A stretch of DNA of 11,880 nucleotides from a virus (Duplodnaviria; Heunggongvirae; Uroviricota; Caudoviricetes). The notes beneath the pieces are model-generated. The model made no database searches. It saw only the letters and a list, made by a program, of their open reading frames with translations, and had not been told where the DNA came from. Below, one piece after another: positions 1 through 6,720 of this stretch. How positions within the stretch are numbered: position 1 is the first letter of the stretch; each line of letters starts with the position of its first letter. The position numbers were made by a program, and so were the translations under genes. The stretch is from positions 1-11,880 of the IMG/VR virus record IMGVR_UViG_2602041579_000011; one strand, written 5' to 3'.

Positions 1-280
1 TCAACACATCCTGCGCCTCTAAAATTACGGGGCGCTTTTCCGGCGACTGCTCATCCCCTTCACATAACCCGGCAGCAACATCCAGGAAGACCTGTCTGAT
101 GCTCCTTCTGGCTGCTGCCTCATAAAACTCCAGCGCGGCACCTTCAACACGGTCCAGCGAGATGTCCAGGTCAAAAATTTCACCGTCAAAGCGTTTTTTG
201 TCCCGTAACGCTAAAGTTACCGTAACTTTATTCTCAAAATTGCGGATCCCTTTCACAATCAGTTCATAGTTTTGAGTCAT
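1..280 (-). CDS. DUF1327-family phage protein (YdfR-like); 3' end runs off the window
   Basis: ATG at 280-278 (minus) with a GGAGAG SD about 8 nt upstream, starting 4 nt after the holin stop. Translation MTQNYELIVKGIRNFENKVTVTLALRDKKRFDGEIFDLDISLDRVEGAALEFYEAAARRSIRQ... resembles the YdfR-type protein that lies between holin and endolysin in Qin-like prophages (from memory). Confidence 0.6.
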   Translation of the reverse strand, partial: MTQNYELIVKGIRNFENKVTVTLALRDKKRFDGEIFDLDISLDRVEGAALEFYEAAARRSIRQVFLDVAAGLCEGDEQSPEKRPVILEAQDVL

Positions 281-284
281 TGAA

Positions 285-500
285 TTACTCTCCCCGTGCA
301 GCCTTACGCTTGTCTTCTCTGATTTTGAAGTACAGATTTGTCAGATAAGTCAGGAAGCCCAGAACCAGACTCCCAAGTACACCAATCGCAGCCCACTGTG
401 ACGGACTGACCTGATCAAGCCACTGTAAAAACCAGTAGCCAGCACTGCCTGCGGAGGTGCCGTAGGCAATGCCCGTTGAAATTTTGTCCATGGATTTCAT
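285..500 (-). CDS. Class II holin / pinholin, phage 21 S-like (71 aa), with dual-start motif
   Basis: ORF-track protein [71 protein letters not shown] matches my recollection of S21 (EssD/EssQ-type): two TM segments, charged C-terminus, Met1-Lys2-Ser3-Met4 dual start. GGAGGTGAGG SD precedes the ATG. Confidence 0.85.
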
Positions 501-560
501 AGCCTCACCTCCGCAAATAACGGATGGCGTAGTTTTACACTGAGAAATGAAAGGGATTTG

Positions 561-584
561 AAAAGAAAAACCCGCAAAAGCGGG
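561..584 (-). terminator. Intrinsic terminator between tRNA cluster and holin (minus strand)
   Basis: CCCGC-AAAA-GCGGG hairpin at 571-584; on the minus strand it is followed by TTTTTCTTTT (plus 561-570). Confidence 0.5.
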
Positions 585-660
585 CGAAACGATATATACA
601 GAAAGGAAAGCACTCTATCCAACAAACCACCCACAGTTAATCGGAATAAAAGCAGAGTGC

Positions 661-733
661 TTATGAATGATCGCCTGCTCGAAGGTTAGTATTTCTGCAC
701 AGCAATTTTGCAAAAAAAGGCGATCATTCATAA
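661..733. repeat. 15-bp perfect inverted repeat (TTATGAATGATCGCC / GGCGATCATTCATAA) with 43-nt spacer
   Basis: Arms at 661-675 and 719-733 are exact reverse complements; no ORF; lies downstream (minus sense) of the tRNA cluster. Confidence 0.8.
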
Positions 734-740
734 CTTAAAC

Positions 741-786
741 GTCTTTCAGTCACTCCGGGATTTCCCATCATCGCAGACTGAAAGAC
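741..786. repeat. 11-bp perfect inverted repeat (GTCTTTCAGTC / GACTGAAAGAC) next to the 3' end of the first tRNA
   Basis: Arms at 741-751 and 776-786 are exact reverse complements with a 24-nt loop; candidate tRNA 3' processing or termination hairpin. Confidence 0.7.
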
Positions 787-791
787 TCTAA

Positions 792-867
<76 letters not shown>

Positions 868-870
868 ATA

Positions 871-946
<76 letters not shown>

Positions 947-948
947 AC

Positions 949-1025
949 TGGACCGCCACCGGGGACTCGAACCTCGCACACTCAACTTAAAGGGTTGACG
1001 CTCTTTCCTGATGAGCTAGTGGCGG
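949..1025 (-). tRNA. tRNA-like gene of uncertain identity (possible Lys-UUU-like, with atypical C at position 33); may be a pseudo-tRNA
   Basis: Reverse complement CCGCCACTAGCTCATCAGGAAAGAGCGTCAACCCTTTAAGTTGAGTGTGCGAGGTTCGAGTCCCCGGTGGCGGTCCA: perfect 7-bp acceptor stem (CCGCCAC/GTGGCGG), T-loop GGTTCGAGTCC, encoded CCA. But the anticodon loop is CCTTTAA, the 5' base is C, the discriminator is U and the T-stem has one mismatch. Confidence 0.45.
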
Positions 1026-1026
1026 C

Positions 1027-1102
1027 TGGTGGCCCTTGCTGGATTTGAACCAGCGACCTGGCGATTATGAGTCGCTCGCTCTCACCACTGAGCTAAAGGG
1101 CC
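1027..1102 (-). tRNA. tRNA with CAU anticodon, ileX-like (tRNA-Ile2, lysidine-type, AUA-decoding) rather than elongator Met
   Basis: Reverse complement GGCCCTTTAGCTCAGTGGTGAGAGCGAGCGACTCATAATCGCCAGGTCGCTGGTTCAAATCCAGCAAGGGCCACCA: anticodon loop CTCATAA; overall sequence very close to my recollection of E. coli ileX and unlike metT/metZ. Confidence 0.75.
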
Positions 1103-1206
1103 GGGCGCAGCATAATAACGTTACGAAATCAATGTTGCAAGCATTCAAAAATCACCCTTATCTCCTCCACTAGCGCATTCACCATGTCTATCCGAGATAA
1201 GTGGTA

Positions 1207-1230
1207 CAAAAAACCCGCTTGTGGGCGGGT
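1207..1230 (-). terminator. Intrinsic terminator just downstream of the Q-like gene (tR'-like); hairpin is also terminator-like on plus
   Basis: ACCCGC-TTGTGG-GCGGGT hairpin at 1213-1230; on the minus strand followed by TTTTTTGT (plus 1206-1212); on plus followed by TTTTGTTTG. Confidence 0.5.
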
Positions 1231-1296
1231 TTTGTTTGCTTTTGCCATCACGTACAAAATCGGCAAAATATCAGATTTGCATGAAATATATGCCTT

Positions 1297-1986
1297 TCAA
1301 TCTACTTTTGCAACACTTTGCTTTGAAAATGCCGCCTTTTGTTTTGAACGTGTTCTCATTACAAACAATAAAGCCTCACTATCAAGTCGGTGAAAAATGT
1401 GTTTCATTGCAACCCAGTGACGAGTAAATGTTTTGGACCAGTTTTTAGTTGTCACTCCCGCCAGTAATGCCAGCTCCTGGTATTCATAACCTTCCCCACC
1501 AAAAAGTTCTGCTTTTACTGCCTGCGCCGCCAGCCAGATTAATTTTTTCAGGCGTTCCTGCGTTTTCCCTGCAATTTTTCTGGTACCGGATTGAGTATTA
1601 AATTCATTCCACGCCCACTGTGTTATCGCGATCTGATATTCCCAACAAATACTCCCGCTGTAACACCACAACAACCAGGCTTTATGATGTTCTTCAAGAG
1701 ACAGAACAGCCCGCCGCCACGATGATGTCGAAAACTCAACCGGACTGACCAGAGGTATTGACGTCCCCTTCGCCAGCGATTGCTTTCCCGGGATTGGTGG
1801 ATTATCCCGCGTTATCATTTTTCCAGTCACTTCATCGCGGTACCGGATTTTTTTTCGCCTGTAACGCCCTGTATCGAACATGGCATTCTCTTGCCAGGCT
1901 TCAAGCTGACCTTTTGTTGCCCCACTCAAATCAGCGGTGGCGATAATGAGCTGCTCACGCACAAACTGTAAATACTGGTTATTCAT
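1297..1986 (-). CDS. Putative late-gene antiterminator Q-like protein (about 229 aa)
   Basis: Sits between rusA and the tRNA/lysis cassette, the canonical Q position. ATG at 1986-1984 overlaps the rusA stop (ATGA); the ORF-track start at 1992 is a GTG. Family call rests on synteny and a vague recollection of a 230-aa Q family; not verified. Confidence 0.5.
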   Translation of the reverse strand: MNNQYLQFVREQLIIATADLSGATKGQLEAWQENAMFDTGRYRRKKIRYRDEVTGKMITRDNPPIPGKQSLAKGTSIPLVSPVEFSTSSWRRAVLSLEEHHKAWLLWCYSGSICWEYQIAITQWAWNEFNTQSGTRKIAGKTQERLKKLIWLAAQAVKAELFGGEGYEYQELALLAGVTTKNWSKTFTRHWVAMKHIFHRLDSEALLFVMRTRSKQKAAFSKQSVAKVD

Positions 1987-2342
1987 GCGCACTCCAGTTC
2001 TGTGATTTTTATCCCCAGCATCCCACCAGGAACGAGCTGACCGCGCACAATATTGATTTCATCAAACTGCTCGTCGTCTATGAGTAGTCCGGCATGCGTC
2101 AGCGCATCCAGTGGTGCTTTCAGGATATTGTCCAGGTCACGACGGCGCTTATCCGGTGGCTCTGCAATAATCTTTATCGCCAGCCGTCCGGACAGGTTTA
2201 ATTTCAGTCGCTGCTGGCGAACAATAAGCGCCACATCCCGGCGATAACGCTCACCGGTTTTTGATACAAAATATGTGCTGCCACGACGTCGCCAGTAGGT
2301 GTTCACCGTCGGCGGGTAAGGCAAAACAAACTCTATACGCAT
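1983..2342 (-). CDS. rusA: RusA-family Holliday junction resolvase
   Basis: 119-aa protein MRIEFVLPYPPTVNTYW...PDKRRRDLDNILKAPLDALTHAGLLIDDEQ... shares the PD(K/R)RRRDLDN and DALT.AG..DD.Q catalytic motifs with E. coli RusA. AGAGG SD 6 nt upstream of ATG at 2342. Confidence 0.85.
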   Translation of the reverse strand: MRIEFVLPYPPTVNTYWRRRGSTYFVSKTGERYRRDVALIVRQQRLKLNLSGRLAIKIIAEPPDKRRRDLDNILKAPLDALTHAGLLIDDEQFDEINIVRGQLVPGGMLGIKITELECA

Positions 2343-2354
2343 CAGTAACCTCTT

Positions 2355-3332
2355 TTACCCGAGCACGCCGGTTGCAAAGGCGTGATCAAGAAAACGAAAA
2401 ATTAAATCAACCTGGGAACCATGCTTTTCTTCGAACGCCAGCGGATCCGCATGAAGCTCGTTGTGATGCTCCCGACACAGCGGTAGTGTGAAAATATCGT
2501 GGGATTTTGTTCCCATTCCCCCCTGACCATAACCAATCAGGTGATGGGGATCGTCGGCTGGTTGACCACAACACGCACACGGCTGTGTCTTTACCCAGCG
2601 CGTGTATTTCTCGTTAACCCAGCGGCGACGTTTAGGTCGCTTCATGAAAGATTCAGGAGACTCCGGATCAACGGCAATGCTGACCACCGTCTTTTCCTGT
2701 GGTGGGTTCTGTTGCTGGTGGGCGTGAGGCGGTAGCACAATATTTTTTGTGCGCTGCTTCAGTATGCTGGTGGCTGTCTGTTCTCCCGGTATGATGTCGC
2801 TTTCGCGGTACACAGAGCGAATTTTTTCCGTACGTAATCCCAACGAACGACGTAATACTGCCTCCGGTAGCGCGTCCGCCACCTGATTGCAGACCGCCCA
2901 CCAGGATAACTCAGCCAGCGATAATTCCCGTTCCTGCGAGCCATTCATTGCATGGCGTATGACGTCAATCATCCATGCTGCCAGGTTTTGGTGAGCAAGT
3001 TGCCCGAGTGATTCGGAGGTCTGGTCGCGCAGCTGGTTATCGCAGTGCCAGCACAACACCATCGCGCCAGCGCCATAACGGTGAATGACGGTTTCACTGT
3101 GGTGATAATCGCCGTGTGGCCACTGGCAGGATTTAACATGACGCAGGAGCCAGTCAGACAGTGCACCTGCGCCACCAGCAGCACGAATCACCCGCTCATC
3201 GCTGAAAAATGGCAGTAATGATTTATCCTCCGCCAGCGGCTGGCGAACGGCAGGGACGACTCCGGACGGCAGACCGCGCATGCTTTTCGGTTCAGGCTCC
3301 ACCAGCACTCGAGGGTTATGAAATACTTGCAT
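2355..3332 (-). CDS. DUF968-family phage protein (YdfU-like), C-terminal Cys/His HNH-like motif
   Basis: Translation from ATG 3332: MQVFHNPRVLVEPEPKSMRGLPSG...CACCGQPADDPHHLIGYGQGGMGTKSHDIFTLPLCREHHNELH... closely resembles my recollection of Qin YdfU. The ORF-track start at 3404 is a GTG giving an odd 24-aa extension, so ATG 3332 is preferred. Confidence 0.7.
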   Translation of the reverse strand: MQVFHNPRVLVEPEPKSMRGLPSGVVPAVRQPLAEDKSLLPFFSDERVIRAAGGAGALSDWLLRHVKSCQWPHGDYHHSETVIHRYGAGAMVLCWHCDNQLRDQTSESLGQLAHQNLAAWMIDVIRHAMNGSQERELSLAELSWWAVCNQVADALPEAVLRRSLGLRTEKIRSVYRESDIIPGEQTATSILKQRTKNIVLPPHAHQQQNPPQEKTVVSIAVDPESPESFMKRPKRRRWVNEKYTRWVKTQPCACCGQPADDPHHLIGYGQGGMGTKSHDIFTLPLCREHHNELHADPLAFEEKHGSQVDLIFRFLDHAFATGVLG

Positions 3333-3405
3333 GGATTCACGGCCCGGCCTAAGGACCACCAGCCCAAGTTCCGGTACCAGAACAGGTCGAAGTAATACCC
3401 GCACG

Positions 3406-3795
3406 TTACCTCCAGATCCGTTGCTGGAATGTGCGGGACGGACGCGGTGGGCGTTCGGAGTAAGGGAGCCTGACGTAGATTATCCAGTGACGGTAGTCGA
3501 GGCTAAGGGCTTTCTTAAACTCATACCCACGTCTGCGGTAGTTCTGAATTAGCCACGCTGCCTGCTCTTCAGTGCATGGAGGGTGTTGGTACCAGTCGGT
3601 TTTAAATATGTGTGAACGCCGCCCGTGCCGGATGGCAAGGCCAGTATCTGAAGAGTGAAATTTGATATTGTGCACCGTCAGTTTTCTCTGCTGGCGCAGC
3701 AGGTGCCAGTTGTTCAGGCTGACGAGCGAATTGTAAACCAGAATACGTGGAAAAAACAAAACCAGTTTGAACGCTGAGAGATCCCCATAAATCAA
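3406..3795 (-). CDS. Hypothetical protein; start uncertain (possible GTG start at 3675 giving 89 aa) or remnant of a frameshifted gene
   Basis: C-terminal about 89 aa (…HIFKTDWYQHPPCTEEQAAWLIQNYRRRGYEFKKALSLDYRHWIIYVRLPYSERPP…) looks protein-like; the N-terminal 40 aa of the ORF-track frame do not. An overlapping frame (3602..3916) is also open. Occupies the position of rem in Qin; no family recognised. Confidence 0.3.
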   Translation of the reverse strand: MIYGDLSAFKLVLFFPRILVYNSLVSLNNWHLLRQQRKLTVHNIKFHSSDTGLAIRHGRRSHIFKTDWYQHPPCTEEQAAWLIQNYRRRGYEFKKALSLDYRHWIIYVRLPYSERPPRPSRTFQQRIWR

Positions 3796-4093
3796 CGCGA
3801 GTAAACCAACGCCATATTCTGATAGTTTCTGGCAAAGTAATTAAGGACGTGCACAGCAACGTTCGTCTTGACATTGGCGCGGCTGTCGTAAGCCATTCTC
3901 TACTAACATCATACATATCCTGATGTTAAACCTAAAATGCAATCCCTTATCTTCAACTGCAAGCCACAGAACTATCATGCTCAGCGTCGCCAGTAGGCGA
4001 CCTACCAGCACTGGCCCTGAGTTACATACTAAATATAATCAGGAAAATATTGCGACAGAGGAATTCATTACCAGGGCAGGTATCCAGTAAAGC

Positions 4094-4151
4094 ATTATGT
4101 CGGCATTAGTGAAGCGATACGTTAGCATCGCTTCACTAATGCCGACATAAT
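4094..4151. repeat. 58-bp perfect hairpin palindrome (25-bp arms, 8-nt loop)
   Basis: ATTATGTCGGCATTAGTGAAGCGAT (4094-4118) and ATCGCTTCACTAATGCCGACATAAT (4127-4151) are exact reverse complements around loop ACGTTAGC; no flanking U-tract on either strand. Confidence 0.9.
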
Positions 4152-4316
4152 TAGCGAGTAGGCATAGAGGTGATCTCATTAATTTTCTTGAATAAATCAT
4201 TAGGCCACAAAACTCTATGCCTCTCTTACTTGCCCTCCTGGTACCGGAAACTACTTAGAATCAGTGCAGGTTATTTGAATAATTAACATGGGCTTATATA
4301 TGAAAAAAATAAAAAT

Positions 4317-5183
4317 TTAGGGGTATGATTGCAGAACTGTAATACCTTCTTTCAACTGTTCAAAATTCTTAAACTTTCTGAGCCTTTCTCTACATAGATC
4401 TCTGGACTTACCATTATCATCTTTATGAATGAATATAATATTCACATCATAACTTAACTTTCCATACATTGGGCCAGGGCAGGCAAGAAAATTATCATGT
4501 CGATATCTGTTACCAACAAACCAATACCCCTCATATCCCAACATGGATAAGAAGTCTACAACATCATCTGTAACTTTCTTATTAACAGCCTCACAGAATA
4601 TTGCTGGCTTGTTATTTTTAATTGTATTCACAGCACCACGCATACAATTGATTTCATATCCTTCAACATCTATTTTGATGAAATCAATTTTTATCCCTAC
4701 AGACTCCATAAATGCATCTATGGTAATAATGGCTGGGCTGGGCTGGGCTGGGCTGGGCTGGGCATCATAGCACCCTTCATTATTATAACCATTTTCTATA
4801 GAAAATGAACCGTAATTCCAGGGTTTATCGTATGAAGATACAGGAATTATAATATCCCCGCAAATATCACCAACAGCTTTGTTATATGGCATAACATTCA
4901 ATACGTTATTTATAGCCAGATTTCCACACAACATATTAAATATTGGTGGCTGAGGTTCAAAACATATTACCTTTCCATTTCTACATATTTTTGATAATGG
5001 TATTGTATGCAAGCCTATATTTGCACCAATCTCTAAAACATTGCTGCCTTCTGATAATAATGTTTTGTATAAGTCGACCTCAACTTCACACCATTCGCCA
5101 TAATTTGAGGCATAGTTAGAGATCATATCGCCCCGGAGTAAAATAAAACTTCCCCATCTTAACTCTTTAATATACGTTCTCAT
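4317..5183 (-). CDS. FkbM-family (Methyltransf_21) SAM-dependent methyltransferase, AT-rich cargo gene
   Basis: 288-aa protein with SAM-binding motif VLEIGANIG, VICFEPQP, and the FkbM signature IDFIKIDVEGYE followed by KPAIFCE. AAGGA SD 7 nt upstream of ATG 5183. Visibly more AT-rich than neighbouring genes (by eye, not computed). Confidence 0.8.
   Translation of the reverse strand: MRTYIKELRWGSFILLRGDMISNYASNYGEWCEVEVDLYKTLLSEGSNVLEIGANIGLHTIPLSKICRNGKVICFEPQPPIFNMLCGNLAINNVLNVMPYNKAVGDICGDIIIPVSSYDKPWNYGSFSIENGYNNEGCYDAQPSPAQPSPAIITIDAFMESVGIKIDFIKIDVEGYEINCMRGAVNTIKNNKPAIFCEAVNKKVTDDVVDFLSMLGYEGYWFVGNRYRHDNFLACPGPMYGKLSYDVNIIFIHKDDNGKSRDLCRERLRKFKNFEQLKEGITVLQSYP
4731..4763. repeat. Pentanucleotide tandem repeat (GGCTG)x6.6 inside the methyltransferase ORF
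   Basis: ggctgggctgggctgggctgggctgggctgggc read directly; on the coding strand (CAGCC)n encodes AQPSPAQPSPA between the SAM-binding motif and the DVEGYE motif. Confidence 0.95.
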
Positions 5184-5590
5184 TCGCTAATCCTTATCTA
5201 TATTAAAATTACTTATATAACGTCTTACTGAAGTGGGTTAAGTGCGGGTGCGTTGAGGATGCCTGACACATCAGAGGTGGCGAGGGATTTCTCCCTCGCC
5301 TGGTCTCTTACTCCTCAGGTTCGTAAGCTGTGAAGACAGCGACCTGGCGATTAACATCGCCTTTTGCTGCTTCATAGCCTGCTTCTCCTTGACCTTTCGG
5401 TCCGTAAGAGGCTAATCTCTATGTGTCGCATAGATATGGCCTCAGATTAATGTTAAGCGTCTTGCAGGACGCGTAATGTTAACTGGGGCTTTTCTCTATC
5501 TGCCTTTTGGTGTTCATGCCTGAGGCAGATAGCCTCAAGCACCCGCAGCAATTCTACTTAACTCTCGCTTTACCGCAAACCGTTTTTACC

Positions 5591-5612
5591 CGATATGGGA
5601 ATTCCCATATCG
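5591..5612. repeat. 22-bp perfect palindrome centred on GAATTC
   Basis: CGATATGGGAATTCCCATATCG is its own reverse complement; starts 9 nt past the stop of the 34-aa mini-ORF; no U-tract follows on either strand. Confidence 0.9.
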
Positions 5613-5620
5613 TAATGAAT

Positions 5621-5725
5621 TCAGTTCCCTAGTCGATCCATCAAAAACACAACCAGGCAGTAAACGCCCACAACAGCAACAACAGCCAGCGCACCTTCCA
5701 TTGCCAGTGATATATCATCCGACAT
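5621..5725 (-). CDS. Small hydrophobic peptide (34 aa, one predicted TM helix)
   Basis: ATG at 5725-5723 preceded by AAGGAGGG SD at 5 nt spacing; translation MSDDISLAMEGALAVVAVVGVYCLVVFLMDRLGN. Below the ORF-track length cutoff. Confidence 0.45.
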   Translation of the reverse strand: MSDDISLAMEGALAVVAVVGVYCLVVFLMDRLGN

Positions 5726-5760
5726 ATTCCCTCCTTTGGTGTTAATCCCGGCGAACGTTT

Positions 5761-5844
5761 TTACCCCCACCGACAAATAACATATACTAAAAAAGCGATA
5801 GCCATAGCAACGCCTGTAATTGCAAATGCTTCAGGCCAGTTCAT
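5761..5844 (-). CDS. Small hydrophobic peptide (27 aa), translationally coupled to the DUF551 gene
   Basis: ATG at 5844-5842 overlaps the DUF551 stop (ATGA); GCAGGAGGTG SD sits inside the end of the upstream gene; translation MNWPEAFAITGVAMAIAFLVYVICRWG. Confidence 0.4.
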   Translation of the reverse strand: MNWPEAFAITGVAMAIAFLVYVICRWG

Positions 5845-6710
5845 TGGCGCACCTCCTGCGGCGGTTCTGGTAGAGGCATCCAGTGTGATGGTATCCACGA
5901 CGCACCAGGTATTATCCACCCATCATTAGCGTCAGGATGCCCCGGGATGTAAGTCGCCCATTTCATTCGCCAGTCACCTTTCCTGCCAAAATCCCTGGCA
6001 ACAAGAACGGCTGTTTTGGTATCCGGCATTCGCTCACTACAGCTTATCCAACTATCCGGAGTTACCGGATAGTTGCCCGATAGTGCATTCTGCTCCAGTG
6101 ATGCTTTTACAAACCACGCTGCCTGAACTATAACGCCATGAATCCAGCGCAAATCAGCATCGCGATCTTTCTTTTTCATCTTTTCGCCACTTAAGGCCTT
6201 GCTTATGTGGCTGCGTACCAGGTCTTCATGTAATTCCTTCGCCTCCTCAATGGTGAAACCACCAGGCAGAAGAGCCGGAGTTACCGGAGAGCTGGTTGAC
6301 GCTTCCGGGATTTTCCGAAAATTATTGGTTGACGAATCTTTATTTTCCCGAAAGTTTCCGGACTGAAGCATGGCTTCGCGGCAATCGTTCCAGCCTGTAG
6401 CGTATGCAGCCGCTTTGCTGCTGCCTTCAACTGGCGCATCCTGCCAATACATTTCTTCCGGCACTATCGGCGCTGGAGGGGCGGCAAATAGATATCCGCC
6501 AAAGTCAGGAAGCTCTCTAATGGCCTGTACGAATTTTTGTTTGCCTACGTCAACCCCTAATGGGTAATGAGCTATAATCTTTGCCACCGGCTCTGCTTCC
6601 AGCGATGCCAGCGCAATCCGTGCCAGTTCCATTTGTTCACCACGGGTAAGCCCGTTTTCAAGCGGATTTTTAATGAACAATTCAATACGTTCTTTGGTAA
6701 TAGTGGTCAT
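5841..6710 (-). CDS. DUF551-domain phage protein (289 aa)
   Basis: C-terminus WISCSERMPDTKTAVLVARDF...SHWMPLPEPP matches the DUF551 hallmark (W-x-S-x-x-ERLP ... HWMPLPEPP) as I recall it. AAGGAGT SD upstream of ATG 6710. N-terminal about 200 aa not recognised. Confidence 0.7.
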   Translation of the reverse strand: MTTITKERIELFIKNPLENGLTRGEQMELARIALASLEAEPVAKIIAHYPLGVDVGKQKFVQAIRELPDFGGYLFAAPPAPIVPEEMYWQDAPVEGSSKAAAYATGWNDCREAMLQSGNFRENKDSSTNNFRKIPEASTSSPVTPALLPGGFTIEEAKELHEDLVRSHISKALSGEKMKKKDRDADLRWIHGVIVQAAWFVKASLEQNALSGNYPVTPDSWISCSERMPDTKTAVLVARDFGRKGDWRMKWATYIPGHPDANDGWIIPGASWIPSHWMPLPEPPQEVRQ

Positions 6711-6720
6711 GTGTTACTCC

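Follow-up and report, generated by a model that had tools for sequence, protein, structure and literature searches.

The subject of this analysis is a pair of very short genes in an Escherichia coli prophage. The DNA that was analyzed, hereafter the window, comprises 11,880 nt (positions 1 to 11,880 of the IMG/VR virus record IMGVR_UViG_2602041579_000011) and, judged by its gene content, is a Rac/lambdoid-type E. coli prophage with its genes on the minus strand. Annotation of a closely related prophage, together with the window's own open reading frames (ORFs), gives the gene order as a LexA-family repressor, cro, YdaT, replication genes, DUF977, DUF4014, DUF551, the two mini-ORFs (ORF1 and ORF2), hok/sok, DUF968, RusA, antiterminator Q, and four tRNA genes. 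ORF1 and ORF2 are located in the nin-like region between the replication genes and Q, not in the exo-xis interval, and the 341 nt around them are 100% identical to E. coli O55:H7 CB9615 and several other genomes.

An earlier note on this DNA had described two mini-ORFs on the same strand directly after the DUF551 stop codon, each with a strong Shine–Dalgarno (SD) sequence and each encoding mostly one hydrophobic helix. Both are present on the minus strand as described, ORF1 at 5761–5844 and ORF2 at 5621–5725. Sequence comparisons show these to be two separate, genuine protein-coding genes, the peptide of each being essentially one hydrophobic α-helix. We hold it as highly probable that both are real, translated coding genes, and as very likely that both peptides are single-pass proteins of the inner membrane, as predicted. 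The best explanation of the whole, which joins two coding genes, coupled translation of ORF1 and a membrane-modulator role, we consider likely.

The signals that mark the two genes exceed chance. On both strands of the window, only three ORFs of 20–60 amino acids (aa) start with ATG and have GGAGG or AGGAG 4–14 nt upstream: ORF1, ORF2 and a truncated hok. The mini-ORFs are regarded as real because shuffled sequences (n = 200) give on average 1.3 such SD-preceded short ORFs, none of them with a transmembrane (TM)-like segment.

ORF1 overlaps the end of its upstream gene

ORF1 (5761–5844, minus strand) encodes a 27-aa putative single-pass membrane microprotein, MNWPEAFAITGVAMAIAFLVYVICRWG, which sequence and comparisons place in a family of the form MxWP[E/D]AF...CRWG. 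Its ATG (5844–5842) overlaps the TGA of the DUF551 gene (5843–5841) as ATGA. The SD, AGGAGG (5852–5857, minus strand), lies inside the DUF551 coding sequence with a 7-nt spacer to the ATG, in keeping with the earlier description. The DUF551 gene (5841–6710, minus strand) encodes a 289-aa protein with a C-terminal DUF551 domain (PF04448, E = 4.9e-19, residues 220–285); this protein ends in ..CAGGAGGTGCGCCAATGA, and its last codons (..QEVRQ) contain the SD of ORF1. The best 19-residue Kyte–Doolittle window of the ORF1 peptide scores 2.45 (residues 6–24). The N-terminus is acidic (E/D5), Trp residues are found near both ends (W3 and W26), an Arg is situated near the C-terminus, and G11, A13, A15 and A17 make up a small-residue face.

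In every record inspected, the upstream coding sequence ends 4 nt into ORF1, and of 126 loci, all but 6 have a long open frame that runs up to the overlap and stops there; diverged family members have TAATG or TGATG in place of ATGA. The proteins encoded upstream fall into at least four unrelated classes by their C-termini (..PEPPQEV[N/R]Q, ..RNGLISVEDVLR, ..NDLKNIEQEVNR in L0139 of phage 933W, and ..LKKKGMNQ), and Pfam recognizes DUF551, with or without Ead_Ea22, in some of them and no domain in several. GGAGG or GAGGA is kept upstream of ORF1 behind these unrelated genes, where only the last ~5 codons travel with ORF1, and in Av-05, TH18 and plasmid pEC2_5 the ORF exactly fills an 82-nt gap between annotated genes. 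With a start on the upstream stop, an SD inside the upstream ORF and conservation of this arrangement in homologs, ORF1 has the hallmarks of a translationally coupled, overlapping cistron; ORF2, separated from the ORF1 stop by a 35-nt gap, does not. ORF1 moves as a module consisting of the last ~5 codons of the upstream gene, including the SD, and the ORF itself. Its constant feature is stop–start coupling to an early accessory gene of the ea/exo-xis type. Because ORF1 overlaps unrelated upstream genes, the link to DUF551 is incidental. The earlier claim that both mini-ORFs are coupled to the DUF551 gene is borne out for ORF1 by the ATGA overlap, though in a form that is not DUF551-specific, and does not extend to ORF2.

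Distribution and coding signature of the ORF1 family

Members of the ORF1 family are 22–27 aa long, with an invariant MxWP[E/D]A N-terminus, a CRWG C-terminus in Escherichia phages and a core rich in small residues. A tblastn search with ORF1 gives full-length matches in 94–99 phage records at 55–100% identity, including 933W, VT2-Sakai, BP-4795, Min27, ArgO145, Av-05 and TH18. A degenerate DNA pattern, in which the seven N-terminal and four C-terminal codons were fixed and the middle 16 codons left free, retrieves at least 120 contigs from IMG/VR, every match listed being 84 nt long. Of 5426 complete E. coli genomes, at least 1645 (at least 30%) have the common ORF1 type, with up to seven copies per genome, and 163 of the places where it was found are on plasmids, including ~100-kb phage-plasmids. 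An ORF1 copy of strain Sakai is situated at 1550843–1550926 of NC_002695.2, and that of 933W is flanked by L0139 and sokW. Carriers of the family comprise the Shiga toxin (Stx) phages 933W and VT2-Sakai, P1-like phage-plasmids and virulent Vequintavirinae. Diverged members are 24 aa long in the P1-like Salmonella phage SJ46 and 22 aa long in a Klebsiella prophage, both sharing MxWPxAF. A wide taxonomic range for the strict motif is ruled out by a scan of one genome per species: apart from two tiny contigs, probably contaminants, all matches come from Escherichia and Shigella.

Some records carry the module under surprising host names. Contigs of 431 and 369 bp in assemblies of Xanthomonas pisi (L226) and Acinetobacter idrijaensis (L228) contain an ORF1 module very similar to E. 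coli phage types; the former looks 933W-like with hok/sok, and in the latter the upstream end is of the DUF551 type. An E. coli-type ORF1 and hok/sok module is also present in a record named 'Actinobacillus phage vB_Apl-pPE4' (L004, PP818812.1). These three host labels likely result from mis-assignment or contamination.

The substitutions in ORF1 are those of a coding sequence. Over 126 loci, 52 distinct DNA sequences encode but 24 peptides. Between the four main types, the proportion of synonymous differences (pS) is 0.33–0.69, which is near saturation, the proportion of nonsynonymous differences (pN) is 0.08–0.20, and pN/pS is 0.16–0.52 (pairwise values, as for ORF2 below). Differing codons are synonymous in 41% of cases in frame 0 versus 6–7% in the other two sense frames; frame 0 is free of internal stops, and the other two contain them. 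All length variants are in frame, among them a 25-aa form that represents a 6-nt in-frame deletion (MSRPDAFAGVAIAIAFLVYVICRWG) and also has MxWPxAF. ORF1 is undisrupted in 109 of the 111 loci sampled through ORF2. Conservation of both reading frames had been proposed as a check on the two mini-ORFs, and it comes out in their favor: in the most diverged full-length E. coli copies (87–88% nt identity) both frames are intact, with synonymous-biased substitutions.

ORF1 is effectively unannotated. The exact peptide has one GenBank entry, and the commonest variant of the family has been annotated by a few submitters only. The Prokaryotic Genome Annotation Pipeline (PGAP) leaves the slot empty in the E. 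coli records inspected, and ORF1 is left out of the inspected phage records (933W, VT2-Sakai, Stx2 phage II, WGPS2, Av-05, TH18 and others). Window-type ORF1 is found in 6 of 5.8 billion protein clusters, mostly as mis-started or frameshifted calls. The description of both mini-ORFs as unannotated is therefore apt for ORF1, and does not apply to ORF2, which has a RefSeq entry (see below).

A fusion of DUF551 with a TM segment was considered, as the 27-aa ORF1 shares one 90%-identity cluster with 121-aa Shigella DUF551 proteins. Those proteins end in ..PEPPQEVNQ and have no such peptide inside, making the grouping a clustering artifact; it could mislead automated annotation transfer. On the opposite strand, Stx2 phage II (L239, AP005154.1) has an annotated 750-nt antisense 'ORF C38' (1–750) that takes in part of hok as well as ORF1 and L0139. 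In none of the six sequence types compared does the antisense frame of ORF1 contain a stop; this may just mirror the codon composition of a hydrophobic peptide, and it invites spurious calls.

ORF2 is a cassette between ORF1 and hok

ORF2 (5621–5725, minus strand) encodes a 34-aa putative single-helix membrane microprotein, MSDDISLAMEGALAVVAVVGVYCLVVFLMDRLGN, that starts 35 nt past the ORF1 stop with an SD of its own. This SD, AAGGAGGG (5729–5736, minus strand), was part of the earlier description and has its AGGAGG core at 5735–5730, 4 nt before the ATG. The best 19-residue Kyte–Doolittle window scores 2.70 (residues 11–29), the net charge is acidic, and an AlphaFold2 model consists of one helix (residues 3–33) with a mean predicted local distance difference test score of 90.6. 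Together with the hydropathy of ORF1, this agrees with the earlier view that both peptides are mostly one hydrophobic helix. ORF2 is already annotated as RefSeq WP_001278454.1, a 'hypothetical protein', and the exact protein is found on ~1000 contigs. It belongs to the family of ECs_5710 (XECs145) in prophage Sp6 of strain Sakai, a variant with one difference (V16I). A HMMER scan of 1.8 billion representatives finds 7 clusters only, all of them close relatives.

A DNA pattern search distinguishes three ORF2 subtypes, A, B and C, that share a common stop position. Type A, the type in the window, has an ATG start preceded by AGGAGG. Type B reads MWEVIVLALKCALAIAAVMAIYCLVIVLMDHLSD, and type C, which is standalone, lacks a start at codon 1. 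Both B and C have GGGAGG or CAGGAG 5–6 nt before a GTG at codon 6, so that SD and start have shifted together. Among the three subtypes pN/pS is 0.17–0.52, and 37% of the differing codons are synonymous in frame versus 13–15% out of frame. Type-A ORF2 is intact in 24 of 24 copies from loci picked via ORF1 alone, and it is always preceded by window-type ORF1.

In the window, the type-A ORF2 is bounded by an 11-nt direct repeat, GGGTAAAAACG. The upstream copy (5756–5766; upstream in the minus-strand reading) overlaps the ORF1 stop and forms the left edge of the cassette. The downstream copy (5581–5591), at a spacing of 175 nt, forms its right edge just before the hok −35 element. In loci without ORF2, which include many phages such as 933W, the ORF1 stop is joined to the hok promoter at exactly GGGTAAAAACG. 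A perfect 22-nt palindrome, CGATATGGGAATTCCCATATCG (5591–5612), follows ORF2 immediately on its 3′ side, leaving ~12 nt to the hok −35, and could fold into a hairpin of about −16 kcal/mol. It has an EcoRI site inside and no T-run, and hence is not a typical terminator. Its core is retained in diverged type-A copies and missing from types B and C. A sequence scan reveals no convincing promoter or terminator belonging to type-A ORF2 itself, and types B and C share an upstream block with weak hexamers only. Considered as a candidate prophage 'moron', an independently expressed insertion, the cassette is missing from otherwise collinear loci, and its Sakai locus is occupied by ribosomes in an uninduced lysogen. 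ORF2 is an independent, Escherichia-restricted cassette with its own SD.

The leader of ORF2, GGGATTAACACCAAA (5735–5749), resembles that of the hok mRNA, GGCATGAACACCAAA (5506–5520). Because of this likeness and the GGGTAAAAACG repeat, the sequence suggests that recombination with an incomplete copy of the hok 5′ region gave rise to the type-A cassette. The cassette region also varies in other ways. In O55:H7 RM12579 (L002, NC_017656.1; 1676–1887), a 107-bp tandem duplication results in two ORF2 copies, both annotated as WP_001278454.1, of which the second has a TTG start and no SD. Rare 74-aa ORF1–ORF2 fusion proteins (P0086, P0088) result from 1-nt indels in a run of T6 or A5. Being probably frameshift variants or sequencing errors, they were not taken to show that the two genes are functionally linked.

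Ribosome occupancy

The earlier note had suggested ribosome occupancy as a test, and for the ORF2 locus such data have been published in a RIBOseq study of E. coli O157:H7 Sakai (Hucker et al. 2017, PMC5597208). There, the locus is listed as XECs145, MCYLSVGVKTFAGIHTKGGN-MSDDISLAMEGALAVIAVVGVYCLVVFLMDRLGN, classed as 'real', and predicted to localize to the inner membrane with one TM helix. In LB, XECs145 has a transcriptome value of 79 reads per kilobase per million mapped reads (RPKM), a translatome RPKM of 346, a ribosome coverage value (RCV) of 4.35 and a coverage of 0.99. The brain heart infusion (BHI) control gives 121, 150, 1.14 and 0.84, respectively, and BHI stress gives 73.3, 1.1, 0.01 and 0.37 (PMC5597208). 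The frame that was scored, 54 aa or 162 nt, is over-extended and starts inside ORF1, and the SD-preceded ATG gives the 34 aa that PGAP now annotates. These published values directly support the ORF2 locus as ribosome-occupied in an uninduced lysogen (PMC5597208). Translation of ORF1 we infer from its conservation, SD and coupling.

The hok/sok neighborhood and the remainder of the window

The earlier note pointed to hokD in the corresponding neighborhood of Qin, and a hok/sok locus is indeed present here: Rfam identifies a sok element (RF01794, 108.3 bits, E = 2.1e-24) in the intact hok mRNA leader and sok antisense-RNA region (5373–5544, minus strand). The leader begins ~80 nt after ORF2. A putative hok promoter, TTTGCG with a 17-nt spacer and TAGAAT (5551–5579, minus strand), is assigned by its position, homologous to the TTGGCG-17-TAGAAT predicted in a related locus (L015); a promoter scan of the window itself did not call a hok promoter. 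The hok gene proper is a hokD remnant (5271–5375, minus strand; pseudogene region 5230–5375), which retains the first 10 codons (MKQQKAMLIA), followed by an 88-nt internal deletion and a frameshift relative to CB9615 hokD.

Elsewhere in the window, a 288-aa ORF at 4317–5183 (minus strand) encodes an FkbM-family methyltransferase (PF05050, E = 2.7e-15). The CB9615 prophage, collinear elsewhere, lacks the ~1.5-kb segment that holds it (3764–5229). Downstream of the Q antiterminator gene, a tRNA cluster (793–1102, minus strand) comprises Gly-UCC, Thr-UGU, Lys-UUU and Met-CAU.

Membrane modulators, toxins or companions of Hok

In the reading that we favor, ORF1 would be made by termination–reinitiation coupling, in step with its upstream Ea22-, DUF551- or EaA-type protein, during early phage expression. 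The peptides of both ORF1 and ORF2 would insert into the inner membrane, where their helices would pack against a host or phage membrane protein and act as modulators rather than as pore-forming toxins. Under the positive-inside rule, positively charged residues favor the cytoplasmic side, and small-xxx-small motifs serve helix–helix packing. By this rule and its small-residue face, ORF1 would be a packing helix with a likely N-out/C-in topology, as suggested by the acidic N-terminus, the C-terminal Arg and the Trp at each interface. The ORF1 family is found in temperate as well as virulent phages, both beside hok and in its absence, so it probably serves a general purpose, as an early function or in host interaction, rather than one specific to lysogeny. 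The choice of a modulating, partner-binding mode over a toxic one is made by analogy and is tentative, a little short of evenly balanced.

Several observations weigh against this reading. The membrane localization, topology and partner binding of both peptides are predictions from sequence, and searches of Pfam, NCBIfam and PHROG find no homology to any characterized small membrane-protein regulator, so that the modulator mechanism is an analogy and not demonstrated membership of a known group. The read counts of XECs145 take in the 3′ end of ORF1 and may include multi-copy mapping, and ORF1, at 27 aa, falls below the 30-aa cutoff of that study (PMC5597208). Natural alleles of ORF1 include some that look damaged: W26 is replaced by a stop in 8 loci, one copy has a nonsense codon at position 3 and one a frameshift (IMG/VR loci L145, L144 and L205), and the ORF1 of Sakai Sp6 (L233, 3344–3427) carries an Asp in the TM core (A17D). 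Because of these alleles, single copies of ORF1 may be decaying or dispensable.

The searches yielded little else that bears on function. Weak matches to PHROG, Pfam and NCBIfam entries (phrog_38566, 4493, 4612 and 22915, and TM segments of the POT family; E 0.002–0.1) were rejected as generic TM similarity, falling below the curated cutoffs where these exist. Neither peptide matches a known superinfection-exclusion protein (e.g. lambda SieB, P22 SieA, T4 Imm or HK97 gp15) in Pfam, NCBIfam or PHROGs, PADLOC not having been searched; the peptides may nonetheless have an exclusion-like function, one of the roles that the earlier note listed. A literature search found no paper on either peptide, a full-text search for the peptide strings and the RefSeq accession returned nothing relevant, and neither peptide is present in those parts of the supplements to the Enterobacteriaceae microproteome preprint and the Pro-SMP finder that were examined.

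One or both peptides might instead be membrane-damaging toxins, either early lethal proteins of the kil type or type I-like toxins, that depolarize the inner membrane, as the earlier note proposed with hokD in view. With 27 and 34 aa, one hydrophobic helix each and little polar sequence at the ends, they fit the general description of type I toxins (PMC12648545), and a hok/sok locus is adjacent. Two sigma-70-like hexamer pairs lie antisense to ORF1 and ORF2 (5701–5728 and 5760–5788), and an antisense promoter-like site in L015 points into ORF2; the hexamers, however, occur at chance frequency (2 versus 1.1 ± 1.1 expected) and are not conserved between ORF2 subtypes. ORF1 also occupies an early-operon position, which is where lambdoid kil functions are located. 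Yet searches of Pfam, NCBIfam and PHROG relate neither peptide to Hok/Gef or to another family of toxins, and the only antitoxin RNA that Rfam finds is sok, which belongs to hok. Type I toxins typically have their translation silenced, and the consensus SD and translational coupling of ORF1 are the reverse of this. The known tails of such toxins (e.g. Ldr) are basic, whereas ORF2 is net-acidic. A potent-toxin role for ORF2 is further disfavored, fitting poorly with strong ribosome occupancy of its locus in healthy LB and BHI cultures (RCV 4.35 and 1.14). Taken together, a toxin function appears rather unlikely. A role as companions of the prophage hok/sok module, in which the peptides form one unit with it and modulate Hok insertion, pore formation or transcription into the hok promoter, seems improbable too, despite a close physical linkage. 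Among loci fetched by pattern, which do not form an unbiased census, 106 of 112 have the ORF2-type gene no more than 120 nt upstream of the hok leader, and 123 of 165 have hok/sok after ORF1, either directly or with ORF2 in between. In the common arrangement, the ORF1 stop is just 9 nt from the hok −35, and the leader of ORF2 resembles that of hok, as described above. Against this, hok without ORF2 is common (43 loci in which ORF1 is joined directly to hok), 41 of 165 loci have ORF1 but no hok (among them WGPS2, Av-05, TH18, SJ46 and the Klebsiella prophage), and type C ORF2 stands by itself. In the window, the 88-nt deletion has destroyed hok and both mini-ORFs are intact. Type A copies are moreover at least 87% identical, and their linkage may be hitch-hiking.

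If ORF1 were a regulatory leader or arrest peptide, its translation would control what lies downstream, for instance by opening a helix that sequesters the SD of ORF2. The minimum-free-energy fold does pair this SD (AAGGAGG; 5729–5740) with CUUUUUU in ORF1 codons 17–19 (5780–5800), the region folds better than shuffled sequences (z = −2.9), and the extreme C-terminus of ORF1 (CRWG-stop) is strongly conserved. However, 17 distinct sequences contain no compensatory pairs, and the double change of one clade fits a slipped register only. What follows ORF1 also varies (hok, terminators or unrelated genes), and replacements in ORF1 keep a TM-like hydrophobic helix, which points to selection on a membrane peptide. 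A leader function is very improbable. Least credible of all is the idea that neither ORF is a gene and both are open by chance in a spacer between genes. The ORFs are indeed very short, ORF1 has no PGAP call and a few copies are disrupted; but length is fixed, substitutions are biased to synonymous ones, indels are in frame, and the SD and stop–start overlap are kept behind unrelated genes. The exact filling of gaps between annotated genes, the RIBOseq support for the ORF2 locus and the shuffle control point the same way, and on this sequence evidence a chance origin appears effectively refuted.

A bolder variant of the membrane-modulator reading can also be put forward. Here, ORF1 would be the obligate partner of the protein to which it is coupled: it would tether or activate the soluble Ea22-, DUF551- or EaA-type proteins at the inner membrane, or would itself be the real effector of phenotypes ascribed to them in Stx phages, such as the lysis–lysogeny bias of ea22 mutants. 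In a related version, ORF1 and ORF2 tune Hok, and hok/sok is a multi-peptide membrane module. We consider this unlikely.

Comparison with known small membrane proteins and phage regions

The closest counterpart is XECs145/ECs_5710 of Sakai Sp6, which is the same gene as ORF2, one residue apart, at the same position between an ORF1-type peptide and a hok leader. The Hok/Gef toxins (hokD/sok and hokW/sokW of 933W) are, like ORF1 and ORF2, small, single-TM, prophage-borne and physically adjacent to them. ORF1 and ORF2 differ from them in having no sequence similarity (no PF01848 match), no mok-type leader frame and, in Rfam, no cognate antisense RNA, and in their strong, exposed consensus SDs. 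Hok peptides themselves are ~50 aa long with a long periplasmic tail (PMC12648545).

In general build, ORF1 and ORF2 resemble bacterial small membrane-protein regulators such as AcrZ, MgtS, MgrB, KdpF and CydX (PMC12648545), the models for the modulator reading, with which they share a length below 50 aa, one TM helix, short termini, small-xxx-small motifs and a history of being missed by annotation. Unlike these, they are phage-encoded, and as homology is lacking the likeness is one of analogy only. The output of ORF1 is furthermore tied by the stop–start overlap to an upstream soluble protein. Chromosomal small membrane-protein regulators more often stand alone or are encoded in the operon of their target.

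ORF1 can also be placed in relation to the lambdoid exo-xis, or ea, region (PMC10834534). In Stx phages and their relatives, genes of the Ea22, DUF551 and EaA types have ORF1 as their last, overlapping cistron, and ORF1 forms part of the same mosaic, early-transcribed, non-essential region. The exo-xis proteins Orf60a, Orf61, Orf63, Orf73, Ea8.5 and Ea22 are soluble, and that paper mentions no membrane microprotein for the region ('transmembrane' has 0 occurrences; PMC10834534). Among the small membrane proteins of phages and prophages, ORF1 is new and ORF2 poorly described.

Concluding remarks

ORF1 is a widespread 27-codon gene that is missing from the annotation of heavily studied Stx phages and from the PGAP annotation of the E. 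coli records inspected. With its invariant end motifs and its occurrence in temperate and virulent phages, the family provides a concrete case of an under-annotated phage microproteome. ORF2 is a prophage membrane peptide among the well-translated small ORFs of an enterohemorrhagic E. coli lysogen, yet is labeled 'hypothetical protein'. As ORF1 overlaps the stop of Ea22/DUF551-type genes, deletions or insertions made there may also have removed or uncoupled the peptide, and published phenotypes might need re-examination. If ORF1 is indeed a partner of its coupled protein, or if the peptides tune Hok, a new and very widespread phage microprotein function would have been hidden in model phages such as 933W.

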